Position numbers and translations under genes: made by a program
Shown here: piece after piece, positions 10,529 through 46,719 of the stretch
Position numbering within the stretch: the first letter of the stretch is position 1
How the letters are laid out: each line of letters opens with the position of its first letter
The notes under the pieces: model-generated
Seen by the model: the letters and a program-made list of their open reading frames with translations, nothing else
Told to the model about the DNA's origin: nothing
The model's database searches: none
NCBI GenBank assembly: GCA_947478395.1
Contig: CANJVR010000004.1
Coordinates: 128,001 to 192,000, forward strand
Source: Opitutia bacterium
GTDB lineage: Bacteria; Verrucomicrobiota; Verrucomicrobiia; Opitutales; Opitutaceae
Direction: 5' to 3'
DNA length: 64,000 nt

Positions 10529-10571
10529 GGGCCTATAGCTCAACGGTTAGAGCAGAGGACTCATAATCCTT
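10529..10571 (+). pseudogene. 5' fragment (43 nt) of host tRNA-Ile2(CAU); left island junction (att)
   Basis: GGGCCTATAGCTCAACGGTTAGAGCAGAGGACTCATAATCCTT is identical to the first 43 nt of the spliced island tRNA. No T-arm or 3' acceptor strand follows. Confidence 0.9.
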
Positions 10572-10619
10572 AGTCGAGCCGAACTTTTCTCCTCTGAAAC
10601 GAGTTTTGCCGGAAGCCTG

Positions 10620-22300: not shown

Positions 22301-23084
22301 TGCCGCAGTATTTGACGTGCTGAGCATGTATACCTACAGGTCTGAAGAGCGATGGAACGCTTGCCGTAAGTTCATCCGGGAGTTGCTCATCAGTCCGCAA
22401 TTTTCGTTGGGGCTGGAGAACACGATGGATATGCACCATTGGGAGCAATCGTCGAAAAAACTACTGAAAGAGGCCCCGGACGAAGACCTAGCGCGGGAGT
22501 TGACCGCTCAAATTATCGCGGCCGAAAAATCATCAGATTTGACTGTGCGGGGAGACACCGACCGTCGTTCCCTACTGGCTACGCTTTTGGCGGAGTATCC
22601 TAGCCCGTGCTGGCCCTTGGTCGGAGCGGAGTTGCTTTCCCCGAATCACTACCGAATGGACATGATTCTTGGGGGGCACGGTTTCGACGATCAGCAAGCG
22701 TCTATCGTTTGGAACGTCCCGCGTGAGATGCTGGTTTCGTGGGTTCGTCAAAATCCGGCGGCAAAGTCGAGGCTCCTCGACGCCATCTCGCTTTTCTACA
22801 CCGAGAAATCAGGTGAGTGCCACTGGCATCCGACCACGCTCGCACTTCTTGACGACGGATTGGACGCTGAAAGTAGACAGGCCGTTGGGCGGAACCTCTA
22901 CAGTTATGGGTCGAGCGGCTCTCGGGTTCCATACATCGCAAAACGACTGAAGCTGTTACGCGAACTGGAGCAGCACCCGCAGCCGACGGTGAAAGAAATG
23001 GCCCGGGAACTCCTCAAAGCCTTCGAAGCGGAAAAGGCGCAGGAACAGATGAGCGATCAGGAGGAGGCAGCCGGGATCTATTGA
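19326..23084 (+). CDS. large STAND-like P-loop NTPase with N-terminal REase (Mrr-like) domain; Avs/NLR-like defence candidate
   Basis: N-terminal DGGEDG...YQSKA, Walker A GHSGLGKT, Walker B LIVVDNC, long Leu-rich helical C-terminus; 1252 aa. Confidence 0.7.
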   Translation: MKQIHQVEAEHIDRLQPAQLVDLLRKLLYAEANGQKVVVHVPEQITVADGGEDGRWEGAATTSEYIPNAFTIYQSKAQDIGIAECGYAALTKKKDAVVRAIDEVLNRGGCYVFFCSHPYVQEGIDDRIAAVKKELTAIGRVLGTDQSIRFLDGNKIAAWTNQHAAAVAHVCECCRLPPVGELRTWSDWNRDTIFRTAFHSNKALDNHILSIRQHLSTAGSVARITGHSGLGKTRLAFEALRPSPDQSDIQQKSLSHSVAYLDMEHSADRVLSLVSSIEASQMAGLIVVDNCERSFHQKLVDIVQRQDSRLRLLTLDYVPESPIPGTLQVPLEPGMMEDVVPKILQDLPQARRLTEQQLKHIASYAHGFPQIASLMAEVGDTLDWTKLDQRGLAKKLLWGRGTGTESEQKVIRALSIFGHVGFEGERKTQKTFVREQLCGPPPLSERDFEQMLLPFLGRRILQKAGGYRLVAPLPLAVALAAEWWEVATAEELEKLLPLIEAAGLTESFCIRAKQLHFSANASTLAAQLCGASGPLSDAGVLNSGPGSRLFRAFVELNPAAASDCLWRVFGASSIDDLSKVKAGRRSLIWALEKICWNRELFHQGAQLLLRFASAEIETFSNNATGQFKHLFQLYLSGTQMPAVERLAVIEVGLASSEPQIRSVCVEALGVGLVTHHFSRTGGVEVRGSGLPEEDWSPKLNGEVAEYWARCFSLLTGVVLERSPESPLAQAELGRHLRGVLKPALLERFEPEFRKIAEALNGYWPEALSSLRSIFEFDTAAYPAESLDRLKQWIIWITPADLPNRLTLVVIEAPYEHEEGPDGTIVDLSAKKAEQLADELVEQAADLREHLDHLQQGDQRQSYVFGRRLGQHEKNSSNLIEQCLTSLENIPAEKRNVAFLAGVLAGIQDRSRVRPILERVATSPQLIDILVPLTRLTQPNVDDIKRIVDLVAAGKIPATQLRQFSFGSVLDELAPQPLLDLFQPLAANLPVARAAVFDVLSMYTYRSEERWNACRKFIRELLISPQFSLGLENTMDMHHWEQSSKKLLKEAPDEDLARELTAQIIAAEKSSDLTVRGDTDRRSLLATLLAEYPSPCWPLVGAELLSPNHYRMDMILGGHGFDDQQASIVWNVPREMLVSWVRQNPAAKSRLLDAISLFYTEKSGECHWHPTTLALLDDGLDAESRQAVGRNLYSYGSSGSRVPYIAKRLKLLRELEQHPQPTVKEMARELLKAFEAEKAQEQMSDQEEAAGIY

Positions 23085-25434: not shown

Positions 25435-27219
25435 CTAGGGCAACGCGTCGGCCTTCGGCTTTTCGTTTAGTTGCTGGAGCAGCCATTCGAGCTGAGTGCG
25501 GGCGGTGGCTATGACAGATCGATAGGCGAGGAACTTGGTGCGTTTCCCGGAGTAGTCTGACTGAAGTTTTGGGTCAACTTGGCCGCCTACGATTAGGATG
25601 TCCAAGTTGATGCCGAGTTGGCCGGTCAGAGTATCGGCATACGTTACCGCCTGAAGTTCCGCCGCGCGACCGACCGTGAGCGAGGGGCGCTTGAACTCGA
25701 CCAAGAGGTGGCGGTTTTCGACATTGGCTGCCAAAAGGAGGTCCGGACGGTCGGTTGCGTCTTGGCCTTTGTAGAGTTTTTCGGTGAAGTCTTTGATGAT
25801 CGTCTGGAGCTGGCGGTTGCTCGCCATGACGCTGTATTCGTTGCCGAAGATCCACAGGCTGTGCTGCAAGGCCGTGTGCATTTGTGCCTCGGTGGTCGTG
25901 GCGTCACCCGCGAGTTTGTAGAGATTGTCGAGATAGGTTCTACGGCGCTCCGCCTGCTGGGCGATGAAAGCGAGATCGGTGAGGCCAAATTTATCGAGCG
26001 CTTGGGCAAAGATGAAAACGTCCGCCTTTTCAGCGGCTTCCACTTCACGGCACACCGTCCAGTATTCGTCCATCTCCAGCGCATCCAGTGCGAGGTTGAT
26101 CAAGACGGTGATGCGCTCTTCTTTTTCGCCTTCTTGGTAGCTGCGGGAGATGAGTTTTTCGAGGCGCTCCTCGACAATCTCGCGACGATGCTCGGGCACT
26201 GATTCGAGCCGGCGCTTCATCAACTGTGTCCAGCGGCCCTTCGCGAGGTTCACCTCATTGGTGTGAACCTGCGTGAGACTGGCTTTGACGTCGTCCTGTA
26301 TGGCCTTGGTGAGGTATTCAAAGCCTTTGTCGCTCTCGATCACGTCGCCGCCGGCGGCAGTCAGCTCAATTGCCTCGGCCTCAATTTTGATTTCACCGAC
26401 GACGCGGTTTCGAAGGCGATCAGTGAGTTGCTCCTCGCGTTCGAGGCCCCAGTGGTGGGGCTTGCCAATGGCTTTTTCGCCAGCTCGGAGGATGAGCCCG
26501 GCATTGCGGCCGGCCACGGGTTTTTCGCTGATGGTGTAGGTGGCGGTGGCCTTGCTGCCGTTTGGCAGAGTATAATGCTTGGTGAAGGTTTCGCCTTGAA
26601 TGTCGTGACGGGCTACTTTTTCGCCGTTGATAAACAGCTCAATGCCGGACTCGCGTCCGTAGTCGTAGGCAAGGATTTCGCGGAGCTTGTCGGGCTGGGG
26701 AAAGTTGAGGCGGGGGTTGAGGTGGCGTAGAGTGACGGTCGTGCCCCGGTTTTCTTTCGGACAAGCGGTGACATCGACCGGCAGGGGGACCTGTTCAATA
26801 TCCTTGCCGGCAGCCATGAGTGCGGACCTGGAAATAAAGATGGTCGTCTCAACGCCGAATGCTTGGGTAACGACCTCCATCTCGTCCGCGAGGATGAGTC
26901 CGGAGAATTTACCTACACCGCGCCGACCCTTGACCACGCGATTGAGGTTGGGGGTGCGGTCACCTTTGCGCGTGGTGCGTGGGCTGGCGATGTTGAGATA
27001 TTCTTGGCGAAGCTCCTGCTCCTTCATGCCGTTTCCATCATCGGCGATCACGATGGGGTCTTCCGTCATCGCTGCTGGCAGGGTGATGCGCACAGTCTTG
27101 GCCTCCGCATCCCATGCGTTGTCGATCAGTTCGCGCAGGGCACGTTCGCTTGAAGAGTAATTTTCACCCAAAATGGTAGCGACACGCGGATCGACGGAGA
27201 AGTGGGCGGGCAGGCTCAT
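25435..27219 (-). CDS. GHKL (MORC-like) ATPase fused to C-terminal PD-(D/E)XK nuclease
   Basis: RELIDNAWDA, ADDGNGM, GRRGVGKF, GTTV (GHKL motifs); C-terminal LWIFG...RPDLLL...LVEFKRP. Confidence 0.85.
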   Translation of the reverse strand: MSLPAHFSVDPRVATILGENYSSSERALRELIDNAWDAEAKTVRITLPAAMTEDPIVIADDGNGMKEQELRQEYLNIASPRTTRKGDRTPNLNRVVKGRRGVGKFSGLILADEMEVVTQAFGVETTIFISRSALMAAGKDIEQVPLPVDVTACPKENRGTTVTLRHLNPRLNFPQPDKLREILAYDYGRESGIELFINGEKVARHDIQGETFTKHYTLPNGSKATATYTISEKPVAGRNAGLILRAGEKAIGKPHHWGLEREEQLTDRLRNRVVGEIKIEAEAIELTAAGGDVIESDKGFEYLTKAIQDDVKASLTQVHTNEVNLAKGRWTQLMKRRLESVPEHRREIVEERLEKLISRSYQEGEKEERITVLINLALDALEMDEYWTVCREVEAAEKADVFIFAQALDKFGLTDLAFIAQQAERRRTYLDNLYKLAGDATTTEAQMHTALQHSLWIFGNEYSVMASNRQLQTIIKDFTEKLYKGQDATDRPDLLLAANVENRHLLVEFKRPSLTVGRAAELQAVTYADTLTGQLGINLDILIVGGQVDPKLQSDYSGKRTKFLAYRSVIATARTQLEWLLQQLNEKPKADALP

Positions 27220-28799
27220 GGTTTTATAAAACTGAACCCGGCAATTTTTAGTTTTCCCAGGAAATCTTGCCCACAGGCGATCAACTGCTCGGCTGTGTAA
27301 ACTTGATAGAGCAAAAGCCAGAAACGATCTTGCTCACGTTGTTCTAGAAGCTGAAGCGACAAAGCCTTTTCTTCTATTTTAGTGATAATATTAGCGAGAT
27401 TATGTCGCAGGGCGTATTCACGAAATAGAACGAGAACGATACAGTCGTCGATAGCTAGAATGCTGGACTCGATTTCTTGCGACAGCGTGGGTTGGATGGT
27501 GTAATTTAGCGCGAGGTAGAGCCCGTGGGCAATTGCATCTGGGTAGAGTTTTCGAATCCCTATCTCTAGCAATTGATCGGCGAGCAGCTTAACCTTTTCG
27601 TTCCTTAGCTCAGGTTTAAATATAGAAAAGACACACCGCTCTACAACAGGCGCAAGGTAGGGGAATGCTATGGCTAGATTAATCGCCTCTTGGATAAATA
27701 GTCGTTTAGCTCGGGAATTGTAACGAGAAACCCGTTCGTCGTCGTTTCCGACCATTTGCATCGCGTAATTTAGCGGGGTGGAGACCGCGTGTTTTTCTGA
27801 TAATTCGAGTGCAAGGTCGAGCAGGCTGCGAATAGCGCTGTAGCGGATTTCGCCAGCGGCCGGGAATTGAAACCGTTTTAACGTCTGAACCCAGGATTCT
27901 TCGCTGGTCTGGGGCATCCGTGAGATCCGAGTCTTTTTTTCGTTTATATTGAGTTCGAATTTGCGTAGGGCCAGGCCGAGGTCGTGGATGAACTTCTCCG
28001 CCTCGTCATGGGATTGGGCGTAGAAACAATAGTCGTCGATGTGACGTGATAACTTAACGTAGCCTTTGCCGACAAGCTCAGCATCGACGCGCGTCAAAAC
28101 GATTTCGGCTATTATATTAGAAGCGTGCGGGCCAATGAGCAGGCCATTCGTCTGGCCATCACGTGTGATTTGAGTGCATTTATCTAAAACGTTTCCGGGG
28201 AGTTTTATGAGGCTTGTTCGATGTTCCTTCGCCTCTTCTTGGGTATGGAGCGCCCACGGAATTGAATGGGTATAAATGCTAGAAAAGCAGGATGAAATAT
28301 CGGCATCCACTCTATATTGGGCGCCGGCCTGCCACTCTAAGTCCTCTTCCTCAAGTTCGAAGCGTTCGGGTCCCTTGTAGGACATCTCAAAAATATGCTC
28401 ACCTTTTGTGTGGCGAACATAAATACGGCTGATTTGGGGATAGCCTTGGAGGCAGTGCTCTTTGATCAGGTTCCAGTTTTTTTTAACGGCCAAAGCCTGA
28501 ACGAAGTAACTTTCGGGGTGCGGCACTCCCAGGTGGCGAGGGACGTTTGTTTCGCGCAATGCCGCATAGCGTATGAAATCGTGGGATCGGTTGCCTATGG
28601 CCTTTGCTAGTTTCTTGTCGGTATCGGCATCAAGGGTGGCGCGAATTTCAGGATCATTGATGGCCGACAGTCCTTGCGTCGAAAAACAGGGTGGAAGTTT
28701 TTCGCCGAATAGTCCGTAGTCTAACAAGCCAGTGAATACCTCATCGGGCGTTAGGCCGATGTCTTCGATGGTGAGTTGAGAATTTAAGTCGATGCTCAC
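27216..28799 (-). CDS. reverse transcriptase, Abi/UG class (DRT4-like candidate)
   Basis: PRHLGVPHP, ADISSCFSSIYTHSIPWA, GLLIGPHASNIIAEI, RHIDDY (YxDD variant), LNINEKKT, helical C-terminus. GTG start overlaps the upstream stop. Subtype is tentative. Confidence 0.88.
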   Translation of the reverse strand: MSIDLNSQLTIEDIGLTPDEVFTGLLDYGLFGEKLPPCFSTQGLSAINDPEIRATLDADTDKKLAKAIGNRSHDFIRYAALRETNVPRHLGVPHPESYFVQALAVKKNWNLIKEHCLQGYPQISRIYVRHTKGEHIFEMSYKGPERFELEEEDLEWQAGAQYRVDADISSCFSSIYTHSIPWALHTQEEAKEHRTSLIKLPGNVLDKCTQITRDGQTNGLLIGPHASNIIAEIVLTRVDAELVGKGYVKLSRHIDDYCFYAQSHDEAEKFIHDLGLALRKFELNINEKKTRISRMPQTSEESWVQTLKRFQFPAAGEIRYSAIRSLLDLALELSEKHAVSTPLNYAMQMVGNDDERVSRYNSRAKRLFIQEAINLAIAFPYLAPVVERCVFSIFKPELRNEKVKLLADQLLEIGIRKLYPDAIAHGLYLALNYTIQPTLSQEIESSILAIDDCIVLVLFREYALRHNLANIITKIEEKALSLQLLEQREQDRFWLLLYQVYTAEQLIACGQDFLGKLKIAGFSFIKP

Positions 28800-31700
28800 C
28801 GTGCAGCGGATTCCACGATGGCGATTTCCTCAGGCGTCAGGCCGTAGAGAGCGTAAACCTGTTGGTCGATCTCGCGCTCCAAGGCGCTCGTGTCGGCGGC
28901 GGCGTTCGCCTGCTTGGAGGCGAGGATACGGTCAATCAGATGCTCCAACCCCTCTTGCTGCTCTGGGGTCGCAGTTGGGATGGGAATATTTTTGATATCA
29001 CTGGGATTAAGCTTTGGAAAAATGTCCTTTGCGAAATTTGGGCAGCGCAACCCAGCATACCAACTCGCTGCGGTAGAATTGACTACACCTAGCAAGTATT
29101 TTAGCTTAACCTTCTTGCCCGGTTTTGCTACGAGAGGACTTATAGCGTGGCCGCAATAAATTGTGCCTGAATGGAACGCGGCTTGGATCCGTTTTCCTGC
29201 ACCGGGAACTTCACGACAAAGAAGTTTTTCTTGGGTAAAAAAGCGGGGCTCGCGGGGTGCCCCGAGCCAATCACCATACGACAGCCACTCTCCACGCCAG
29301 TTAATGCTGTATCGCGATATGTCGCGACCGTTTAGCCATGGCCCATAGGTTTCATCGCGCTTCTCGTCGGCGTGGAAAGCACGCTTAGAAATCAGGTTTG
29401 CATCATGACCGCGGTATTTGTCGTAGGGTGTAATTCCTTGCGACACATCACACAACTCACCGAGTCGCTTGCACTGAGTTTCGATTTTCTTCAGTAAACC
29501 CTCTTCGCCATCGTTAGATTGGAAATCGATCTGTAAGTATGGTCTTTTCCGAACTGATTCGACTGAAATGCATTTGTCTCCCGAATCAGTCCGCACCTGA
29601 ATTGAGGAGCTTGATTTTTCCTTTTCATGATCAAGCTTTTCGAAAAAAACGGTTTGGGTGCTTACCACCGCATTTTTAAAGACGCCTTCTCCCCAGATGC
29701 GTATTTCTGAAATACTGGTTTCGTCCAGAAGTAGTTTACGCAAAGGCTGGCTGTTTTGCAGTGTTAGCCAGACGACGGGTGTGATGTATGAAGCAATGCC
29801 CCTTGGTTTTAGCAACAAAACCGTGCGTTCTAAAAACAATTCATATAGATCGGCTTTGTAACAAAAAGATTTAAAGAGTTTGAGCGCCGCAATGTTCGCT
29901 TCCGAAAACTTATCTTTTGTTACCTGAACATAAGGAGGGTTGGCGATTACGACATCGAAACCGTCCTTCAAGGCCCGTCCGAACATCCAATGCGGGTCAA
30001 AAAAGTCAGCACTGGACTGAGGGTCGAAAGGGTCCCACTCGGCGAGGTGCCTGGACTTCGCGGAGTTCACGGCTCCAAGACTGCCTGCGAGCGTTTCGGC
30101 CAGCTTGAGGCGGAGGGCCTTGATTTTCTTCTGCAAGGCGAGCTTCTGGTCGCGCCGCTGGATGGTGAAGTGGCCGTGGTAGGCGTCTTCGATTTCCCTT
30201 TCGATGGGCGCGATGAGAGATTCGATGAAGAGGTCTTTGTCCGAGATAGGCAGGCCGATGAGAGTGTCAGCGGCGACGAACTTGGTTTCTAGATTGGGCA
30301 GCGGACGGATGCCGTGGTTGTCCTTTTTGTTGCGGTTGGTCTTCTGGTCGCAGACGAGGGAGATGAAGAAGCGGAGTTTGGTGATCTGGATGGCGATGGG
30401 CTGGATATCCACGCCATAGAGGCAGTTTTCAATCAGGTAGAGCTTGCGACCGTAGTCGTCGTTGTTGTCGACAAAGGCGCGTTCGAGTTCCTCGCGCATG
30501 GGAGCGGAGTCGAGCTTAGCGAGCTGCGTCTGTTTCCAGCGATCGTTGTCGGGGTCGAGCTTGCCGAGGATATAGACGAGCTTGTGGAGGACGCCCATGG
30601 GGAAGGCGCCGGAGCCGCACGCGGGGTCGAGGATTTTCAGCGCGTCGATGGCAGCGATCAGCGTAGCGACCTCGCTGGGCGTAAAAGCGTGCTCTTTCTC
30701 GGTGTAGGCGAAGAGGAGGTCGAGGCCGGCGCGGGCGTCGTGTTCCTTCATGCGGGCCTTTTCCACGAGGGCGCGGGTAAGGTGGGCCTTTAGGGACTCG
30801 TCCACCATGTAGTCCACGATGGGGCGCGGGGTGTAGAAGGAGCCGGTCTGCTTGCGGGCGGTGGTTTTGGTTTCCTCGTTGTAGGACGCGAGAAGATTTT
30901 CGAAGACTTTGCCGAGGAGTTCGGGATCGAGGGCGATTTCCTGATCGATAGGAGTGTTCTCGACGATGGTGAACTTGTAGCGGTTCAGGATGGTAATCAG
31001 GCCGGTGACCTTTTCGGCCTTGCGCTTCTTGTCGTCATAAACTTCCGAGAGGTCGGCGACTTCCCCGCTGTCGAAGAAGAGGCGATCGGGGACGTGGGGA
31101 CGCTTTTTGGCGTTGCGGGAAAACCCGTCGAGGTAACGCTTTTTGTTGGTGCCATCCTCCGTGCGGTCGAGGCACTCGAAGAGGCCGCCATTAAGGAAAG
31201 GGATGTCGGCGAAGTGGCTTAGCGCGGCGTCGGGCTCTTCGCGGAAGAAAGCTTCGTAGCGGTAGAGGTTGTTGACGTCGTAAGTGGCGCGGTTCTTGGC
31301 GAAGCCTTCATCCTTAGCGAAGACGCGGTAGGACTTGCCGTTGCCGTCCTTGCCCATGCGCTGGTTGAGCGTGGCGAAGAAGAGGTTTTGCAGGATGGCC
31401 TGATAGTAGGTGGAGCTGGTCTCGCTCTCGGGATCGAAGCCTTTGAGGAGTTTGGCGAGGTCGGCGGGGTGGAAGAGCTTCTCGGGGATGAGGCCCTTTT
31501 CCTTGAGGAACCAGCAGAAGATGAGGCGGGTGAGCAACCGGATGAGGCCGGTTGCGCGGCGTTTCTCTTCGTCGGGCTCGAGGTCGGCGGGGAACCCCAC
31601 CTGCGGGAGCGCCCAGAAATACCAGTTGGCCAGCTCACGGTAGAAGCGTTCGTTGAGCAGCTCGACGTTAAAGATTTGCTCCCACGCGGTGTGGAGGGAG

Positions 31701-32296
31701 TCGAAGTCGATAATGGGCTGCTTCTGCGGGTGGACGAGATTGGGCAGCGCGAGAGAAGCGAGAATGTCGAGGTGGCCGCGGTGGGGCTGGGCGAAAGCGA
31801 TGTCTCGGATGAGCGTGGCTTTTTCGAGGACGTCCTTGCTGTCGTCGGTCTTGTTCCGTCGCCGGTTGATGACGGCGATGGTGAGCCGGTCTCCGTGCTT
31901 GAAGATCACCATGACGGGCATGGGAAAGAGGCGGTTAATCTGCCGGGCGATGGCGGAGAACGTGCCTCGGGCGTAGTCAGCGCCCTTCAGCTCGATAGCG
32001 ATGAAGACGTAGGATTGGAGAAAAGATTGCCGAACGTCGGTCTCATTAAAAAGCGAGGCCGTGCGATTAAGTTCGGCATCCGTGAGCTGGAAGAGGAGAT
32101 CGGCAGATTTCCACTCGTGGAAGAGTGCCTTTGTCTGGTCGAACGCGTGACCGGAGCCGAAGTCACTGAGGAAGTCCTGGGGTTTTGAGCCTGCGCCGAC
32201 GAGGAACTTGTCGCTCTTATAACCGAGCTTAAAGAGAAGCTGCCGGGCGGCGTCCTTGAGCGGGAGGGTTTGGAAATTGGCGAGAGCGGACTTCAT
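28796..32296 (-). CDS. type IIG/Eco57I-like N6-adenine DNA methyltransferase with C-terminal target-recognition domain
   Basis: PFLNGGLF, TGSFYTP, LDPACGSGAF, ANPPY, TaqI-C-like TRD, C-terminal EIDQQVYALYGLTPEEI. Confidence 0.92.
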   Translation of the reverse strand: MKSALANFQTLPLKDAARQLLFKLGYKSDKFLVGAGSKPQDFLSDFGSGHAFDQTKALFHEWKSADLLFQLTDAELNRTASLFNETDVRQSFLQSYVFIAIELKGADYARGTFSAIARQINRLFPMPVMVIFKHGDRLTIAVINRRRNKTDDSKDVLEKATLIRDIAFAQPHRGHLDILASLALPNLVHPQKQPIIDFDSLHTAWEQIFNVELLNERFYRELANWYFWALPQVGFPADLEPDEEKRRATGLIRLLTRLIFCWFLKEKGLIPEKLFHPADLAKLLKGFDPESETSSTYYQAILQNLFFATLNQRMGKDGNGKSYRVFAKDEGFAKNRATYDVNNLYRYEAFFREEPDAALSHFADIPFLNGGLFECLDRTEDGTNKKRYLDGFSRNAKKRPHVPDRLFFDSGEVADLSEVYDDKKRKAEKVTGLITILNRYKFTIVENTPIDQEIALDPELLGKVFENLLASYNEETKTTARKQTGSFYTPRPIVDYMVDESLKAHLTRALVEKARMKEHDARAGLDLLFAYTEKEHAFTPSEVATLIAAIDALKILDPACGSGAFPMGVLHKLVYILGKLDPDNDRWKQTQLAKLDSAPMREELERAFVDNNDDYGRKLYLIENCLYGVDIQPIAIQITKLRFFISLVCDQKTNRNKKDNHGIRPLPNLETKFVAADTLIGLPISDKDLFIESLIAPIEREIEDAYHGHFTIQRRDQKLALQKKIKALRLKLAETLAGSLGAVNSAKSRHLAEWDPFDPQSSADFFDPHWMFGRALKDGFDVVIANPPYVQVTKDKFSEANIAALKLFKSFCYKADLYELFLERTVLLLKPRGIASYITPVVWLTLQNSQPLRKLLLDETSISEIRIWGEGVFKNAVVSTQTVFFEKLDHEKEKSSSSIQVRTDSGDKCISVESVRKRPYLQIDFQSNDGEEGLLKKIETQCKRLGELCDVSQGITPYDKYRGHDANLISKRAFHADEKRDETYGPWLNGRDISRYSINWRGEWLSYGDWLGAPREPRFFTQEKLLCREVPGAGKRIQAAFHSGTIYCGHAISPLVAKPGKKVKLKYLLGVVNSTAASWYAGLRCPNFAKDIFPKLNPSDIKNIPIPTATPEQQEGLEHLIDRILASKQANAAADTSALEREIDQQVYALYGLTPEEIAIVESAAR

Positions 32297-35200
32297 GGTG
32301 CTTTGATGACGAGCCAAGTGACGAGTTCGAGGTCAGTCTTCTCGTGAACCTGTTCCTTCGCATTCGGCAGGACGAAGCCGCGCCCGGACTGGAGCCCAGC
32401 GGCGGCGCGCTTGCGAAAAGTGACTGCGAGGGAGTCTACGGCTTTTTGCAGGAGCTGGTCGTAAGCTTTCATGTCCGCGCCGTGATTGGTCTGCTGGTCG
32501 AAGAGATCGCAAAGCTGTCCGTAGGCTTCCGCTTTGCCGGTGCAAAGGATGCGGTAGATGTCGAGGATCTGCTTGGGATGTGCGAAACCGAAGCGGACGT
32601 TGCCATCGTCCAGCACGTAGACGAGGAAGTAGGGATGGAGCGGATTGATGGACTCACTCGGCACGGGCTTGGTGTCGGTGGTTCCGCCGCGCTGGCCTTC
32701 CTGCCGGAAGCAGAAGATCACGCCGGGGCCGATGACTTTGTAGTCGGGATGCGTCGGAACACAGGTGTAGAGACCGAAGGGGGCGTCCTCTAGAGCGGCC
32801 TTGTTCGCCTCGATGTATTTCAGGAGTTCGAGCCGGAAGTCATCGAGCGTGAACTCGGTGAGGGAGATGCTGTCGCCAAGATCTTCGATGTCCAGAACCT
32901 CGTCCTTCAGCCGGAGAAGCTGCTTGTCGCGATAGCGGAGGTCTTCGGAAATGATGTCTTCGATTTCCTCGTTCTTGAGGACGTTGTCCTCGAACGTGGC
33001 GGAGAGATCCACGAGGGCCATGCGGGCTTCGACGCGGTTCTTGAGATTGATGTATTTGTTGAGATCCTCGGTGGGCCAGAAATTGACGAGCTGCACAGTG
33101 TGGCTGGCGCTACCGATTCGATCGATGCGGCCGAATCGCTGGATGATACGGACAGGGTTCCAGTGGATGTCGTAGTTGATGAGGTAATCGCAGTCCTGGA
33201 GATTCTGGCCTTCGCTAATGCAGTCCGTGGCGATGAGGAGATCGATCTCTCCCTGCTGCGGCATACTGGGAATCTTGGCGCGATGCTTGGAGCGCGGTGA
33301 GAAGTTGGTGAGAATGTGGTCGTAAGCGCTATTCCCGAAGGTCGCGCGGGTGTCGCCTCCACCGCACACGAGGGCCATGTGAATGCCGAGTTGCTTGGAG
33401 CCCCATTCTAGGAGCGATTCATAGAGGTAGGTGGCGGTGTCGGCGAACGCGGTGAAGACGAGGATTTTTTTGTTCGGCTCGCCGAGTTTGTTGGTGGTGG
33501 GTTTGGCAACTTTGGCGGCGATGAGCTTTTTCAATTCCGCGAGCTTGGCGTCGGTCGCGGGCGTCACGCTCTGCGCGGCGTTGTAGAGGATATTGAGCTG
33601 GTCCTTGTCCTTCTTGAGGTCCTTCAGCCAATTCTTCCCGGCATCGAGTTCCAGATGCTCGAGTTTATATTTGAACTTACCACCTACGAGCATGGCTTCT
33701 TCGAGTTCCTCGTCGTGGCCGGGGTCGTCGAGTTCGAGTTCAAGCGCCTCAGACTCGGGGTTCTGATTGGGCAACGTCTGGTAGTTCTTAATCTTCTTTT
33801 CCAATCCTTCGATCTTGGCGATGGTGCGCTCCATCGTGATCTCGAACGACTTCACGGAGCTTTCGAGCCGTTTGAGGAAGTTAACCTTCATCATGCCGAT
33901 GAGAAATTTTTCGCGGTCGGCCTGAGTGAAAGGATCGCGGGTGGGCGTCTGATAGAGGCGCTTGAACTCTTCTTTGACGTATTTCGAGGGGTTGAAGAGC
34001 GAGAGTTTGTAGCCGGCGATTTCGTCGTTGAGCTTATCGTAGGAAAGGAACCGTCCGCGCAGGTCGATCTCGGGATAGATTGAGATTGGTTTCTTGCGCT
34101 CGGGGAAGCCGCCGAGCTGAGCGATGGTGGCCTTGTAATATTTCTGGATGTGCTTGCGTGAGCGGGCGATGGTCAGCTCGTCGAGCAGCTTGAAAAACGA
34201 CGCATTGAGTTTCTCCAGTAGTTCGCCGGTCTTGCGCTCGGCGCTGTGCTTTTTTGCCCAGTGGGTGAAAACCTTCTGCGCGGTGGCGAGGGTCTCCTTG
34301 AGACTGCCAATGCCGAGAGATTCCGTGAACGCGTCGTCGCGGTTCTCGGTCAGAAAATAGAGCTGGTTGCGAAGGTCTTTTAGGTCGTTGTTGACCGGAG
34401 TGGCGGAGAGCAGGAGGACCTTGGTGCGAACGCCGGCCTTGATGATGTCGTCCATGAGCCGCTGGTAGCGGCTTCGGCGGATGATGTTGCCCTCGTCGTC
34501 GCGCTTGCCGGGGGTGTTGTTCCGGAAGTTGTGCGACTCGTCGATGACGACGAGGTCGTAGTTGCCCCAATTAAGGGTCGCGAGGTTGATGTCGCCGGAG
34601 TAGCCGGTCTCACGGCTGAGGTCGGTGTGGGAGACAACATCGTAGCGGAAGCGGTCTGAGCCGAACGGATTCAGGAGACTGTTGGCCCGGTAAACGGTCC
34701 AGTTGTCGCGTAGTTTCTTCGGGCAGAGAACGAGGATGCGCTCATTCTTCAGTTCGAAATATTTGATGACGGCCAGCGCCTCGTAGGTTTTGCCCAAGCC
34801 AACGCTGTCTGCGATAATGCAGCCGTTGTGGCGGAGGATTTTGTTGATGGCACCTTTGGCCCCGTCCTTTTGAAATTCGAATAGAGCCTTCCAAATGTCC
34901 GTCTCAAACAGGCTGGTCTTGCCCAGATCCGCGTCGGTCTTACCAGTGTCGCCGAGGAACTTCTCGAAGATGTGGAAGAGGGTCTTGTAGTAGATGAACT
35001 CTGGGGTGTTGTTCTCGTAGAGTTGCTTGAGGTAATTGAGCACCTCCTGCTTTACGTCCTTCACGAGGGCCTCGTTGCCCCAAAGTTCATCGAACCACTG
35101 CTTGAGTTCGTGACGGTCGCGGTTGCCGTCAACGATCAGGTTTAGCTCGATGTTGTTGCCCGCCGCGCCAAGGCCCAAGCCGCGCACCGTGAAGTTGGAA

Positions 35201-35622
35201 CTACCAAGGATGGCATCGTCCACGCCAGCGGTGGCGACGTGATACATTTTCCCGTGAAGGAGGTTGGACTGCTTGATGGTCTTGATGTCCACCTTGCGCT
35301 CGATCCAGTCGGCGCATTCCTTCGCGACGCGTTTTTGCTGGAGCTTGTTGGCGAGTTCCAAGCCGTCGGCGTCGATAATGAAAGCCTTCTTTTCGGTCTT
35401 GGTCGGATCGAGCCGGTTGACGAACGACGGTTCACCGAAAAGAAAATCCAGGTGCTCAACTCGTTCGAGAGCTTCCTTGAGCGCATCGTAGGCGTAGATG
35501 GTGAAGTAGGCGGAGACGATGGAGAGTTTTGATCGATCTCGGATTTTCGAGTCCAGGAAATCGGCGACTGTTCCACGCGTGTGATTATCGCGAAGGCCGG
35601 AGTTGTTTGGGGACGGGGGCAT
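32293..35622 (-). CDS. PLD-like nuclease domain fused to SNF2-family helicase
   Basis: LHGKMY...GSSNFT (PLD); ADSVGLGKT, IDESHNFRN, LSATP, SEGQNLQ, QRFGRIDRIG. Confidence 0.92.
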   Translation of the reverse strand: MPPSPNNSGLRDNHTRGTVADFLDSKIRDRSKLSIVSAYFTIYAYDALKEALERVEHLDFLFGEPSFVNRLDPTKTEKKAFIIDADGLELANKLQQKRVAKECADWIERKVDIKTIKQSNLLHGKMYHVATAGVDDAILGSSNFTVRGLGLGAAGNNIELNLIVDGNRDRHELKQWFDELWGNEALVKDVKQEVLNYLKQLYENNTPEFIYYKTLFHIFEKFLGDTGKTDADLGKTSLFETDIWKALFEFQKDGAKGAINKILRHNGCIIADSVGLGKTYEALAVIKYFELKNERILVLCPKKLRDNWTVYRANSLLNPFGSDRFRYDVVSHTDLSRETGYSGDINLATLNWGNYDLVVIDESHNFRNNTPGKRDDEGNIIRRSRYQRLMDDIIKAGVRTKVLLLSATPVNNDLKDLRNQLYFLTENRDDAFTESLGIGSLKETLATAQKVFTHWAKKHSAERKTGELLEKLNASFFKLLDELTIARSRKHIQKYYKATIAQLGGFPERKKPISIYPEIDLRGRFLSYDKLNDEIAGYKLSLFNPSKYVKEEFKRLYQTPTRDPFTQADREKFLIGMMKVNFLKRLESSVKSFEITMERTIAKIEGLEKKIKNYQTLPNQNPESEALELELDDPGHDEELEEAMLVGGKFKYKLEHLELDAGKNWLKDLKKDKDQLNILYNAAQSVTPATDAKLAELKKLIAAKVAKPTTNKLGEPNKKILVFTAFADTATYLYESLLEWGSKQLGIHMALVCGGGDTRATFGNSAYDHILTNFSPRSKHRAKIPSMPQQGEIDLLIATDCISEGQNLQDCDYLINYDIHWNPVRIIQRFGRIDRIGSASHTVQLVNFWPTEDLNKYINLKNRVEARMALVDLSATFEDNVLKNEEIEDIISEDLRYRDKQLLRLKDEVLDIEDLGDSISLTEFTLDDFRLELLKYIEANKAALEDAPFGLYTCVPTHPDYKVIGPGVIFCFRQEGQRGGTTDTKPVPSESINPLHPYFLVYVLDDGNVRFGFAHPKQILDIYRILCTGKAEAYGQLCDLFDQQTNHGADMKAYDQLLQKAVDSLAVTFRKRAAAGLQSGRGFVLPNAKEQVHEKTDLELVTWLVIKAP

Positions 35623-38975: not shown

Positions 38976-39173
38976 AGGTTTTATTTCTGATTTCGCGGGC
39001 GCGTGATTGCGTCCGGTAATCCTGCCTATGACGGGGGTATCCCAAAATGTAAGAGGGACTCGCCCCATTTACACTTCCTTCAGATTTGGACTCCACGGTG
39101 GGAGGCTTCGCTCCGTGTGATGTCGCCAATTGGCGACACTGCCTAAGGCGAAATCGCCTCGAAAAGGGTTCTT

Positions 39174-39478
39174 TGGTGGGCCCACTGGGATTCGAACCCA
39201 GAACCAAAGGATTCAGTTGGTCCGGACGTTTCCGTCTGGTCTGGACTATGTCTTCACCCGCCTTGGAGGCGGGGACGGGAGTTACGCGGGAATTAAGGGG
39301 ACTAAACCCCTCCGCTAGTCTCTACACCTTCCACCGCTGTAGCGGTGGCTCGGCTCGGCGTTCCCATGCCACACTCGCGGCGAAGGGTTCTCCGAATTTC
39401 CCCGTATCCCGCCGGCAATCACTCACCGGCGGCACCATTTTGATGAGTCCTCTGCTCTAACCGTTGAGCTATAGGCCC
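39174..39478 (-). tRNA. tRNA-Ile2 (anticodon CAU, lysidine type) interrupted by a group I intron; exons 39478-39443 and 39213-39174
   Basis: Joined exons give a 76-nt cloverleaf GGGCCTATAGCTCAACGGTTAGAGCAGAGGACTCAT^AATCCTTTGGTTCTGGGTTCGAATCCCAGTGGGCCCACCA with encoded CCA. C4:G69 and C5:G68 are TilS determinants. Confidence 0.93.
39214..39442 (-). ncRNA. group I self-splicing intron (IC3, Azoarcus tRNA-Ile type), 229 nt, no ORF
   Basis: P1 pairs exon CAU with IGS GUG (U.G wobble). P2 has a GUGA tetraloop. Core motifs AAAUUCGG, AACGCCGAGCC, GAAGGUGUAGAGACUA and GUGAAGACAUAGUCCAG are present. P9 is GACG-GAAA-CGUC, followed by a terminal omega-G before AAUCC. Confidence 0.93.
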
Positions 39479-40102: not shown

Positions 40103-41228
40103 TTAAGCGGCGCCCTTTTCTTTCCCCTTGGGAAGAAGGGCCCCCAAGCCCGTCGTGGTTTTCCGACGCTCGGCCACGTAGTAGGTCGCCGTGATCTTTA
40201 TTGAGGCGTGGCGAAGGCTTTTGCTCGCAGCGACCAAACCCCATTTTTCATTAATCAACGAGCCGCACTCTTTCCGCAATGTGTGTAGGGGGCACCGCGC
40301 TTTGACACCGTGATCGCGCAGCCACTGATTGAGGTTCTTAAAGCTACTTTCACAGCGGTAGTGCCGGTAGTTTTTCGGGCGCCGTGAGTTGTTCTTAGAC
40401 TCAACGATGTAGGGCCCCGTGGCGCGTTCTTTGAAGATTCGAAGGACATCCAGGAGTTCCTGCTCGATCGCGACGTCCCCGCCCGACGCGACGGTCTTCA
40501 GCTCGAGGAATTCATGCGCTTCAATACTCATATGGCTGCGCTCCCAGTTGATCCACGTCCACAGGGCCTGATCAATTTCCCCGCGACGCAGACCTAGGAG
40601 GAGACCAAAAATGAAGATTTTGAATTCCTCAGGGCGGTCGGTCGACAGCTCGGCGATCGCCAAACGCGTGAGTGCCTGGGCCTCGATTTTCGAAGAGTAG
40701 GCAAAGCCGCTCAAGCCTTTCACCGACATCGATACCTCGTGGAATGGCATGGGTGGGACGATGACGCCCAACTGCGCGATTTCCTTGATTACTTCCTCAC
40801 GGAACAGCGCCCGCAAATTGCGGATATATCCGTCCATTGTGACTTGAGCGTGCCTAAGTTGCACGGGTTGGTCGACGAACCGGGCGAGGTATGCCCGCTT
40901 GAAGTCCTTCACCTTGGTAAGCGTGATCGTATTCAGCAACTGCTCGTCAACCTTCGCTCTCCATTCCCGAATCCGAACGCCCTTGGCTTTGCCAGAGCCG
41001 ATACCGGACATCCAAGCTACCAGGGTTCTGAGTTTCGAAATGTAGCTGATAAAGGTTGTCCCCGACGTGAAGAGACCCGTGAGAAGAGCCAGGCGAATAA
41101 ATTCGCCGACCGTGAGAACGGGAGCCGGTTTAACGGCCTTCGGTTTGTAACGCTTTACGGTTTCATCCCAGCCTACGCCGATGACGCTGAGATAGATCTC
41201 ACGGGCCTTACGGGCTGCGGCGTCTGAG
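40103..41228 (-). pseudogene. tyrosine integrase, 5'-truncated
   Basis: GLRRGEI, LKT, HTLRK and LRHASIKITATYY catalytic motifs. The frame stays open upstream of the 41011 ATG (DAAARKAREIYLS...TVGEFI), then enters the 41229 repeat and meets an in-frame TGA with no start codon. Confidence 0.8.
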
Positions 41229-41241
41229 GGAAGCCCCGGAC

Positions 41242-41412
41242 GGGGTCAGGTTGCCCATTTCCCCCTGTTGACCGGAGACCGTTCGAGGAGCTGCGGGCGG
41301 AAGTTTTAGGCTGCGGCTCCGAATAGCTTTTCAAGCGACGGTCGACGCGGAGATTTTCTTGGAGTCACTTCGCGCTCCGTTGGTCGGGGCGGGAAATGGG
41401 CAACCTGACTCC
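41242..41412. mobile_element. MITE-like element with 22-bp terminal inverted repeats
   Basis: GGGGTCAGGTTGCCCATTTCCC (41242-41263) versus GGGAAATGGGCAACCTGACTCC (41391-41412), one mismatch. Confidence 0.65.
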
Positions 41413-41599
41413 CTCCGACAACTCAATTTATTTTTTCACAAACCGAATTTCAAATTCATCTTAATTGTTATATAACCGAATTAAATCACTCGTCGAAAAT
41501 TTAATCGAATAAGGGGTAGCCGACATATAACAAATCACATCGCTAAAAAGTTTTTCGGAAGCACATTAGCATCCTTCGTGAGTCACTATATTGCGAAAT

Positions 41600-42765: not shown

Positions 42766-43200
42766 TCACGGTCCTGTTTTCTTGCTTTCCCCCTGAAGTA
42801 TTTTTCGTAGCTCAGACGCAACATCTGCATCTTGGAGCATACCTAAATCCTGAGCCAAGACTACGACGTTTTTACTCCTCAATCCCACAGCAAACCCCGA
42901 CAAATAACCGCCGCTTCCTGCGCTGCGAACGGAAATGATCAGTACATTGGTCGAATCACCATTAAGGTCGAGCAACTCAACCTTTTCAATCTGACCATCC
43001 CGTTCTATGAGGATTCCACCCGCAAAATCATCGGCGTCTAATCCTTTTTTCGCCTCTTCGTCGTCAGCTTGGTAAAACCTAACTGTGAAAGACCCAGTTG
43101 AGAGCGGTTCGAAGTTACCTTCCGCAACAACCGCCGTCAGCTCCTTGGAAATCCTGATTTTTTTCACATATCGGCCTTCGGCTCCTTGAGTTGAAGCCAT
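42766..43200 (-). CDS. PliI-family inhibitor of I-type lysozyme (signal peptide possibly frameshifted)
   Basis: VVAEGNFEPLSTGSF, RDGQIE, DLNGD, RSAGSGGYLS. Confidence 0.75.
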   Translation of the reverse strand: MASTQGAEGRYVKKIRISKELTAVVAEGNFEPLSTGSFTVRFYQADDEEAKKGLDADDFAGGILIERDGQIEKVELLDLNGDSTNVLIISVRSAGSGGYLSGFAVGLRSKNVVVLAQDLGMLQDADVASELRKILQGESKKTGP

Positions 43201-44058: not shown

Positions 44059-44334
44059 ATGTAGGTTCTCATTGGCGAAACTAGTCATCAGGTGTAGAGA
44101 CCAGCTGCGGTGATCCCCCGAAATCCGGGCCGATCCGAAAATCAGAGAGAACCGTCGAAAGATCCTTCTGCAGTATTGCGAGGTCGATGCGGCCGCAATG
44201 GTCATGATCTGGAAGCATTGGATTACGCAGCTGCTTGAACTGACCGCAAAAACTAAACAACCCCCTCCCATTTATGTAACCTAATTTAGTTGATCCATTG
44301 TCCAAAGGAAGGGGTCTGCCTCACAAATATACAC

Positions 44335-45341: not shown

Positions 45342-45475
45342 GGAAGCCCCGGACGTGGTCAAGTTGCCCATTTCCCCTATTGACCGGAGAATTTTCGAGA
45401 AGCTGCGGGCGGAACATTGCGTGGCGAAGGCTAAGGCCGCGATCGAGCGTTTTTCAAACGACGTGGATATTTTCC
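45342..45475 (+). repeat. diverged direct-repeat copy of 41229-41370
   Basis: Shared blocks GGAAGCCCCGGACG, GTTGCCCATTTCCCC, TTGACCGGAGA, AGCTGCGGGCGGAA and TTTTCAA.CGACG in the same order. Confidence 0.8.
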
Positions 45476-45600: not shown

Positions 45601-46719
45601 ATGTACATCCACCAACGCCAAAATTGGCCTCACTTTACCTGGAACGATGCCGTCATCACAACGCTGCTGAGCGATGTTCGGCATGCTCAAGGTCGCCTGC
45701 TCGGCCAGATGGAAGCTTTGGGTTTCCCTCTTCGACAGGAAGCGTCCTGGGTGACCCTCACTCAGGACGTGCTCAAGACAAGCGAGATTGAGGGTGAGAA
45801 ACTGGATACGCAGCAGGTGCGCTCTTCCATTGCTCGGCGCATGGGTATTGAGATCGCGGCTTTACCCTCTGTGGATCGCAGCGTTGAGGGGATCGTTGAA
45901 GTCATGCTTGATGCAACGGGCCGCCAGCGGGAGCCGCTGGATGAAGAGCGGCTTTTTGGGTGGCATGCCGCCTTGTTTCCCACGGGAAGAAGCGGCTCTG
46001 TGCGCATCACGGTCGGGAATTGGCGCAACGAGCAGAGCGGTCCGATGCAAGTCGTCTCGGGCGCCGATGGACGCGAAAGAGTTCATTTCGAGGCGCCTTC
46101 GCACGACAGGCTAAAACCTGAAATGACCCAGTTTCTCGCATGGCTAAATTCCACGCCGGCAACGGATCTAGTCCTCATGTCTGCCCTGGCGCATTTCTAC
46201 TTCGTTACGATCCATCCCTTCGACGACGGCAATGGGCGTATCGCCCGCGCCATTGCGGACATGATCCTTGCTCGCTCGGAGAACAGCTCACAGCGGTTTT
46301 ATAGCATGTCTGCTCAAATCCTGCAGGAGCGAAACGCTTACTACGATATCCTGGAGGCCTGTCAGCGAGGCGGCCTGAACATCTCGGCTTGGATTGAATG
46401 GTATCTTAACTGCCTCAAACGGGCGATAGGTTCGTCAAACGAAGTCCTCGGCCTCGTCTTGAAAAAGGCGACATTTTGGCAGCGTCGCGAGGGCGAGACG
46501 TTCAACGAGCGTCAGCGGGCCATCCTCAATCGGCTGTTCGACGGTTTTGAGGGAAAGCTCACCTCGTCCAAATGGGCGAAGCTGGCAAAATGCTCTCAGG
46601 ATACGGCTAACCGTGACATTTCTGATCTGATAAAGCGGCGGGTCCTCGTGAAAGATGAAGCGGGGGGGCGCAGCACCAGCTATTCGCTAAAAGAAGGTGC
46701 CGAGCCGGCAAAATCCTAG
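45601..46719 (+). CDS. Fic family protein (DUF4172 N-terminus, C-terminal HTH)
   Basis: Canonical HPFDDGNGRIAR motif; N-terminus MYIHQRQNWPHFTW. Confidence 0.93.
   Translation: MYIHQRQNWPHFTWNDAVITTLLSDVRHAQGRLLGQMEALGFPLRQEASWVTLTQDVLKTSEIEGEKLDTQQVRSSIARRMGIEIAALPSVDRSVEGIVEVMLDATGRQREPLDEERLFGWHAALFPTGRSGSVRITVGNWRNEQSGPMQVVSGADGRERVHFEAPSHDRLKPEMTQFLAWLNSTPATDLVLMSALAHFYFVTIHPFDDGNGRIARAIADMILARSENSSQRFYSMSAQILQERNAYYDILEACQRGGLNISAWIEWYLNCLKRAIGSSNEVLGLVLKKATFWQRREGETFNERQRAILNRLFDGFEGKLTSSKWAKLAKCSQDTANRDISDLIKRRVLVKDEAGGRSTSYSLKEGAEPAKS

Follow-up and report, generated by a model that had tools for sequence, protein, structure and literature searches.

Introduction

Which feature sets a group I intron apart from the Azoarcus type when both interrupt the same transfer RNA (tRNA) at the same position, and what might that feature do? 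This question is raised by a 64,000-nucleotide (nt) stretch of DNA, hereafter the window (contig CANJVR010000004.1, positions 128,001 to 192,000, of assembly GCA_947478395.1, labelled Opitutia bacterium and here numbered G000), in which a 229-nt group I intron on the minus strand (39442–39214) interrupts a tRNA(CAU) gene (39478–39174) directly after U36. The intron carries a 30-nt hairpin between P7 and the 3′ strand of P3 (P3′), and is a modest, very probably functional structural variant of the classical tRNA-Ile2 class with a conserved P7.1-like module that is absent from the Azoarcus model. We consider it likely that the element is a self-splicing intron with an IC3-type core in the sole tRNA-Ile2(CAU) candidate of the genome, as its sequence predicts, and that the hairpin is a conserved peripheral module that would brace the P3-P7-P8 domain. 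The structure and distribution of the hairpin, the alternatives to the bracing role, and the genomic setting of the gene are described below.

The split tRNA gene

In-silico excision of 39442–39214 leaves a regular 76-nt cloverleaf tRNA(CAU) with an encoded CCA, as called by ARAGORN, in which the anticodon loop reads CUCAU/AA and C4-G69, C5-G68, and G27-U43, pairs that may bear on TilS, are present. At its default setting, without intron mode, ARAGORN reports no tRNA in the window, and the split gene appears once introns are allowed. The gene comprises three parts:

39443–39478 (minus): tRNA-Ile2(CAU) exon 1, positions 1–36, with the anticodon CAU at 39445–39443 (ARAGORN on the in-silico spliced sequence)
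39214–39442 (minus): group I intron, 229 nt, with the 5′ splice site after U36 and the terminal guanosine (omega G) at 39214 (conserved in relatives)
39174–39213 (minus): tRNA exon 2, positions 37–76, encoded CCA included (ARAGORN on the in-silico spliced sequence)

A preliminary description of this DNA had given exactly these intron limits, to which the minus strand is now added. The insertion point, CUCAU/...G/AA, is that of the "Ile2.5Ug" class, in which the host is tRNA-Ile2(CAU) and the intron follows the fifth anticodon-loop nucleotide (U36). This class is one of the four classical bacterial tRNA-intron types, all of them IC3 in the group I intron database, and 21 types are distinguished there (Williams, 2020; bioRxiv 10.1101/2020.01.27.920355).

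The genome contains 44 uninterrupted tRNAs, two of which have a CAU anticodon and were typed by eye as elongator Met (G1-C72 acceptor end) and initiator Met. Because these two look like methionine tRNAs, the split gene is the sole tRNA-Ile2 candidate, and no second one was found in the genome (3.3 Mb, 98.8% complete). In tRNA-Ile2, C34 is turned into lysidine and the tRNA thereby reads AUA; a gene with the TilS-type domain PF01171, which covers other enzymes too, is present in the genome. With a single tRNA-Ile2 candidate and a PF01171 gene in the genome, splicing of the intron in vivo is very probable.

The Rfam group I model RF00028 aligns over its full length (model 1–253) at 39455–39222 on the minus strand with 29.4 bits, at an expectation value (E) of 2.1e-5 in a 901-nt search and 1.8e-5 in the whole genome, where it is the sole match. 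The covariance-model check suggested earlier has returned a full-length alignment at E of about 2e-5, with a score under the gathering score of 50. The intron holds no open reading frame (ORF) recognisable by Pfam; the only overlapping ORF lies on the opposite strand (39086–39460, 124 amino acids) and has no Pfam match, in agreement with the earlier statement that a homing endonuclease ORF is lacking.

Core fold of the intron

The fold was examined in alignment A1, a plain MAFFT alignment of 31 distinct hairpin-bearing tRNA(CAU) relatives, on which all columns below are numbered. From the alignment alone, RNAalifold returns P1, P3, P4, P5, P6, P6a, both hairpin stems, P8, P9, and the tRNA stems. 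Of the cells in the 33 counted pairs, 96.8% are paired, versus 83.5% in shuffles (0 of 500 as high) and 31–47% with the partners slid. In the window copy the elements are as follows, from 5′ to 3′:

39433–39435 (minus): internal guide GUG, pairing with exon CAU as P1, with a U36-G wobble (RNAalifold pairs)
39409–39432 (minus): P2, 10 base pairs (bp) including three weak closing pairs, with a GUGA loop at 39422–39419 (read from the sequence)
39400–39405 (minus): P3 5′ strand ACGGGG, partner 39280–39275 (covariation)
39331–39396 (minus): P4-P5-P6-P6a, with P4 39396–39392 paired to 39358–39354, P5 39387–39363, and the P6a hairpin 39348–39331 (covariation, RNAalifold)
39316–39320 (minus): P7 5′ strand GACUA, partner 39248–39244 (sequence alignment)
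39286–39315 (minus): bipartite P7.1-like hairpin, 30 nt, directly after GACUA (covariation, RNAalifold, fold)
39275–39280 (minus): P3 3′ strand UCCCGU, downstream of the extra hairpin (covariation, RNAalifold)
39257–39273 (minus): P8, CCCGCC-UCCAA-GGCGGG, 6 bp with a UCCAA loop, without the CCUAAG/UAUGG-type motif of Azoarcus-like P8
39244–39248 (minus): P7 3′ strand UAGUC, preceded by J8/7 UGAAGACA (39256–39249)
39222–39239 (minus): P9 with a GAAA loop (covariation)

The order of elements is P7, extra hairpin, P3′, P8, P7′. The position of P3′ is fixed by its own covariation: each of the 31 relatives has a P3 of 5–7 bp, with 12 different strand combinations among them (such as ACGGGG/CCCCGU, UGGGA/UCCCA, UCGGA/UCCGA, and CUGGGUG/CGCCCAG), three of the five RNAalifold P3 pairs covary, and in every sequence the partners are the 5–7 nt just before J3/4 and a segment 5–8 nt beyond the hairpin. 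In the Rfam alignment, P3′ coincides with the 3′ strand of the inner stem; this placement was rejected, as that strand covaries with its own 5′ strand, and it is wrong because the P3 5′ strand covaries with the segment 5–8 nt beyond the hairpin. The hairpin is thus located between P7 and P3′, as had been proposed from the window alone, and RNAalifold and the pair counts agree on this point; the short P8 noted at the same time is found at 39273–39257.

Among the remaining helices, the P1 columns 37–39 and 77–79, paired by RNAalifold, hold C-G in 30 of 31 relatives and A-U and U-G in 31 of 31 each. Double changes occur in five of the seven P6a pairs and in all six counted P9 pairs, and the window copy has an A-C mismatch in P9. 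P7 is invariant and paired in 31 of 31, its 5′ strand having been fixed by the search pattern. The terminal guanosine before the 3′ splice site is present as G at 39214. Column 344, which is aligned with this base, is A in eight of the 31 relatives (...ACGUA/AACCC; L064, L083, L165, L174, L225, L230, L252, and L283), with a G two bases upstream; the group takes in two metagenome-assembled genomes (MAGs) labelled Fibrobacter, and in it either the 3′ splice site may be unusual or the anticodon loop may have to be read differently.

Structure and covariation of the extra hairpin

The extra segment of about 30 nt that had been noticed after GACUA lies at 39315–39286, and both of its stems covary. 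It consists of an outer stem, GCGG (39315–39312) with CCGC (39289–39286), an inner stem-loop, AGGGG-UUUAGU-CCCCU (39311–39296), and a 3′ bulge, UAAUUC (39295–39290). Folded alone, the segment forms these same elements (outer stem 4 bp, inner stem 5 bp, loop and 3′ bulge 6 nt each) at −13.8 kcal/mol (z = −2.1; 7 of 200 shuffles equally stable). Pairing in the inner stem reaches 98.1% of cells in A1, with double changes in three of the five pairs; pair 232–244 is GC in 15, CG in 10, UA in 4, and AU in 2 sequences, and pair 233–243 is GC in 18 and AU in 12.

The outer stem is invariant in A1, but its 5′ strand had been fixed by the search pattern, and for this reason viral contigs were scanned with the four bases of that strand left free. 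The scan returned 79 loci with 67 distinct sequences, of which 65 have a fully paired outer stem in nine combinations: CUGG/CCAG (42), CCUG/CAGG (8), GCGG/CCGC (6), GUGG/CCAC (3), CUAG/CUAG (2), and GGGG/CCCC, ACGG/CCGU, CCGG/CCGG, and GAGG/CCUC (one each). The two sequences without a full outer stem are not intron-like in appearance. In samples in which the region was unconstrained (L003 and four hairpin loci), the consensus is U-N-N-A-G-Y for the loop and UAAU-N-A for the bulge, from which L149 alone departs. Loop positions 237–238 and bulge position 251 vary freely in A1 and have no partner.

As a separate observation, UAGUC at 39300–39304 (minus), in the hairpin loop and 3′ strand, comprises the same five bases as the P7 3′ strand (39248–39244), and in the window copy it could mispair with the adjacent P7 5′ strand GACUA; the match is not conserved, its U being C in 17 of 31 relatives.

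Comparison with Azoarcus-type and subgroup IA introns

The window intron shares with the Azoarcus type the host tRNA, the insertion after U36, the CAU/GUG P1, and the GAAA loop on P9, and the core motifs of P4, P6, J6/7, and P7 are near-identical. The window pre-tRNA is 64–67% identical over 275 aligned positions to those of three Azoarcus-like introns (L133, L126, and L061, labelled Rhodocyclaceae, Sterolibacterium, and Proteobacteria; BH72 itself is not among them). The earlier assignment of insertion site, guide, and core motifs to the Azoarcus class is supported. From the three Azoarcus-like sequences the window differs chiefly by a single block of about 30 nt that follows GACUAG and in this comparison is found only in the window and in its closest relative, L200 (87.9% identical to the window pre-tRNA and likewise with a short P8). 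Furthermore, Azoarcus-like P8 shows CCUAAG...UAUGG, which we take to be the receptor for the L2 GAAA loop, whereas P8 in the window is a plain 6-bp hairpin and, unlike in the Azoarcus type, L2 is GUGA on a longer, 10-bp P2. The Azoarcus-like hosts are Betaproteobacteria and the window host is probably a member of Verrucomicrobiota, the nearest named relatives being MAGs labelled Opitutia and Lacunisphaera, so that the distant phylum suggested previously is likely. By its 30-nt hairpin the intron departs from the IC3 description, which specifies "no extension between P7 and P3."

An insertion at this place is known from subgroup IA. According to PMC4498298, the td ribozyme is like the Azoarcus and Synechococcus IC3 ribozymes save for P7.1/7.2, an extension that comes between P7 and P3 and is associated with P7-P3-P8; because it occupies the same place, the name P7.1-like appears apt for the window hairpin. 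In the IA2 introns of phage T4 (td) and phage Twort, P7.1/P7.2 hold the same topological position, although IA2 has two hairpins and the window one bipartite hairpin, with no second, on an IC3-type core. In the IA1 intron of the Candida albicans mitochondrial large-subunit (mtLSU) gene, P7ext (P7.1/7.1a) is described in PMC12088405 as bracing the active site, and it resembles the window hairpin in being a single extended helix after P7. Its anchoring, as given there, differs: P7ext is held by a P11 pseudoknot to P6 and by contacts with P9.1, whereas the window intron has no P9.1 and its hairpin loop and bulge lack a covarying partner.

Occurrence of the hairpin

Relatives were collected in three steps. 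The first, a search of 60 related genomes and the source genome, gave 30 loci, and one related genome (G026) has the same intron type at 79% identity. The second step used one genome per species and a core pattern avoiding the hairpin region, and returned at least 120 loci. Among the matches listed, four carry the hairpin, in MAGs labelled Fibrobacter (two), Opitutia, and Lacunisphaera; about 20 introns lie in tRNA(CAU) after U36, and in 15–16 betaproteobacterial ones GACUAG leads straight to P3′ without a hairpin, as in Azoarcus. The third step, a motif scan, added at least 120 metagenome loci and 12 viral loci. ARAGORN called 92 of the 138 loci examined as intron-split tRNAs, of which, among the matches listed, 33 (31 distinct) are tRNA(CAU) with the hairpin; the 31 distinct introns come from Verrucomicrobiota-like, Fibrobacter, and metagenomic sources.

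Of the 59 other split tRNAs, which ARAGORN mostly calls tRNA-Phe(GAA), with the intron after U33, many have a simpler hairpin (GCGGG, 17-nt loop, CCCGC) in the corresponding position, also between P7 and P3′. These loci lie on metagenome contigs L154–L271 (e.g., L154, L155, and L156), and two of the loci show P3 covariation on inspection by eye. The bipartite hairpin was also observed in introns rich in adenine and thymine in a protein-coding gene (L170, L172, L178, L183, L184, L192, L210, L239, L246, L250, L268, and L274–L280), on viral and metagenome contigs, several of them large viral ones. The host gene is presumably ribonucleotide-reductase-like, as judged by eye from a motif, and an upstream ORF extends into the ribozyme core. 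Within the phylum the hairpin is rare: the pattern with a free outer strand was found in 2 of 401 evenly sampled genomes, namely the source genome and one family-mate. A blastn comparison of the intron with 50,697 phage records gave no match at E 1e-3, the intron being too short and divergent for blastn.

The hairpin is missing from the classical Azoarcus model and, judging by these sequences, is standard across a broad lineage of bacterial tRNA and phage introns. The preliminary description had called the intron a structural variant of a model ribozyme and had named the possibility that such a hairpin is standard. The variant is real, and the sampled betaproteobacterial Azoarcus-like introns have no hairpin; its novelty is not upheld, the hairpin being lineage-wide and present in dozens of bacterial tRNA and phage introns, so that the refuting condition named there applies in part. 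In a partial coverage of the full-text literature, no printed description of an IC3 tRNA intron with a P7.1-type module was found.

Proposed function and alternatives

The intron is predicted to excise itself through the standard two-step reaction started by guanosine. The sequence has every signal for it, namely a wobble pair of U36 with G in P1, a terminal G, and core helices without disruption. The hairpin between P7 and P3′ would brace the P3-P7-P8 domain, a role that is likely from its position and from its analogy with P7.1/7.2 of IA2 and P7ext of IA1. After splicing, C34 would be converted to lysidine and the tRNA would read AUA.

Several points weigh against this reading. Azoarcus-type introns work without the hairpin, and the core therefore does not need one. 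No helix-like Watson-Crick partner for the hairpin loop, bulge, or linker was found on scanning all A1 columns for at least 85% pairing, at least two pair types, and a helix-like run, a criterion applicable to variable bases. An isolated correlation of column 262 with column 301 and another of column 241 with column 320 were set aside, as the adjacent columns are unpaired. Because no column pairs in a helix-like manner with the variable loop, bulge, or linker positions, there is no evidence for a P11-type pseudoknot as in IA1, and the conservation of loop and bulge bases points instead to non-Watson-Crick contacts. The invariance of some positions was partly imposed by the search patterns, namely GCGG in the motif-scan sample and hence A1, and RG and CTTAAT in the viral scan. 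In the window copy itself, bulge column 252 is C, where 30 of 31 relatives have A, and the short P8 is without the receptor-like motif of Azoarcus-like P8. Finally, at the Rfam gathering threshold (50 bits) RF00028 has no match in the window, 29.4 bits falling short of it. The low score is weak evidence against function because scores vary widely across the whole group: three Azoarcus-like introns score 47.4–54.8 bits (one at 54.8, two below the threshold at 47.4–47.7), five other hairpin-bearing introns 30.3–47.9 bits, and L064 and L083 are not reported at E 0.001. None of the Rfam group I seeds is bacterial (Williams, 2020; bioRxiv 10.1101/2020.01.27.920355).

The best-surviving alternative is that the hairpin is a tolerated passenger without a role in folding or catalysis, a stable stem-loop at a permissive site such as a former insertion site of an endonuclease gene, with the stems kept only to avoid disturbing the core. 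Such a passenger would be consistent with the Azoarcus-like introns that have no hairpin in the same tRNA at the same site, with the freely varying, unpartnered positions 237–238 and 251, and with the homing endonuclease genes of transfer-messenger RNA (tmRNA) introns, whose location in the "P7.1 region," as reported in PMC11915505, marks the place as permissive. A neutral stem, however, has no need of the bulge UAAU-N-A and the loop U-N-N-A-G-Y, which the unconstrained sample keeps apart from L149, nor of a bipartite form that persists across bacterial tRNA and phage mRNA-type introns through nine outer-stem and several inner-stem combinations. This conservation exceeds what a passenger would require, and we regard the alternative as unlikely.

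It is far less probable that, instead of acting as an intramolecular brace, the hairpin is a docking site for another RNA or for a protein, such as a homing-related factor, a tRNA-processing enzyme, or a helper of splicing. Conserved loop and bulge bases that lack a covarying RNA partner could be so explained, and the phage relatives carry the upstream ORF running into the ribozyme core; yet the window intron has no ORF of its own, no neighbouring gene is conserved in common with the relatives, and no result of the analysis points to a partner. That the window copy is in decay, with little or no splicing, as its lowest Rfam score among the copies that scored (29.4 versus 30.3–47.9 bits for five others), the A-to-C change at the nearly invariant bulge base, the short P8, and the A-C mismatch in P9 might suggest, is highly improbable in a sole tRNA-Ile2 candidate of a 98.8% complete genome with all core helices and both splice-site signals intact, and with the same short P8 in its closest relative.

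Genomic surroundings and possible mobility

A self-splicing intron with a bracing hairpin remains the favoured reading, and the question follows of how the gene came to lie where it does. Up to 10.4 kilobases (kb) the window contains housekeeping genes (GMP synthase, hisD, hisC-like, hisB, and UxuA-like), and housekeeping-type genes are found again from about 47.5 kb. The roughly 37 kb in between (10600–47400) are dense in defence-family matches, and the guanine-plus-cytosine content falls to 0.41 at 42–44 kb, the lowest of the window. The features of this region are as follows:

10529–10573 (plus): intron-less copy of about the first 43 nt of tRNA-Ile2, inverted relative to the gene, at the edge of the housekeeping genes
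19326–23081: PD-Lambda-4_A-like
25438–27219: HATPase_c_3 protein, adjoining the Drt4 gene
27219–28799: Drt4 reverse transcriptase
28799–32317: type IIG restriction-methylase
32296–35622: HKD and Snf2 helicase protein
40106–41011 (minus): gene of the tyrosine-integrase family, separated by 628 nt from the 5′ end of the tRNA gene (Pfam PF00589, E 4.5e-7)
42769–43200: PliI lysozyme-inhibitor-family gene
45601–46716: SoFic-like gene

The inverted tRNA fragment lies 29 kb from the intact gene, at the boundary between the housekeeping and defence-dense parts; its region (10529–10594, plus) continues as unrelated sequence after about 43 nt and has an Rfam tRNA score of 29.9 bits. Integration into a tRNA gene usually does not leave the 5′ part of the tRNA, which is what the inverted fragment is. 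No direct repeats bounding an integrated element were found in the window, and because the only tRNA-derived repeat is inverted, no element limits can be drawn. A direct repeat of about 75 nt (86–94% identical; 41229–41302 and 45342–45414) brackets the part of the window lowest in guanine plus cytosine and has an inverted partial copy at 41391–41417, 130 nt from the first repeat; these repeats may mark a small inserted element. A 21-nt match to the intron core at 44090–44110 was taken as chance.

The surroundings of the gene are not shared with its relatives. A tblastn search of 15 window proteins against the 3-kb loci of 29 relatives gave only one match, UxuA-like and 36% identical, which in L022 is differently oriented and adjoins an intron-less tRNA; 60 window proteins against seven loci of 11–19 kb gave the UxuA-like match again, in the same genome, and one weak thioredoxin-like match. 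Window proteins had no meaningful match around tRNA-Ile2 in four genus-mates or in two carriers of this intron type. In the genus-mate G004, homologues of the genes that flank its tRNA-Ile2 lie inside contigs C2 and C3 of the source genome, and no tRNA-Ile2 was found on those two contigs.

Furthermore, the genus-mates hold a different intron. Among the 17 genus-mates searched, seven (L014, L016, L019, L021, L024, L025, and L013), together with one other family member (L004), have a distinct IC3 intron in the corresponding tRNA(CAU) gene, inserted after U33 (CU/...G/CAUAA), 218–226 nt in length, with no hairpin after P7 and with a longer 3′ domain. Within a single genus, one tRNA gene is therefore interrupted at two sites by different intron lineages.

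Because the defence-dense DNA is non-syntenic, an integrase gene adjoins the tRNA gene, and genus-mates have a different intron, an arrival or relocation of the intron-bearing gene along with island DNA is plausible. The location on a mobile element that had been proposed for it is plausible on the first two of these grounds, with no element ends found. A broader interpretation combines this history with the distribution of the hairpin: the bipartite hairpin, characterised by the bulge UAAU-N-A and the loop U-N-N-A-G-Y, would be an unclassified portable domain on an IC3 core, common to tRNA-Ile2, mostly-tRNA-Phe, and phage ribonucleotide-reductase-like introns and defining a subgroup that bridges IC3 and IA, and the intron-bearing gene would have arrived with the island DNA and replaced a resident gene such as that with the other-site intron in genus-mates. 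This combination is put forward as tentative, and we think it more doubtful than probable.

Concluding remarks

The finding leaves the knowledge of how group I introns work unchanged; its consequences concern annotation, evolution, and comparison. Most hairpin-bearing introns score under the Rfam gathering threshold, and ARAGORN at its default setting skips the split gene, so that a genome can seem devoid of tRNA-Ile2. That one genus holds two intron lineages at two sites is a clear instance of either gene replacement or repeated invasion. Studies of RNA folding and catalysis use the Azoarcus intron as a standard model, and a naturally occurring relative, which interrupts the same tRNA at the same site and has one well-defined added module, would allow a gain-and-loss comparison of the way in which a peripheral element could stabilise a minimal core.

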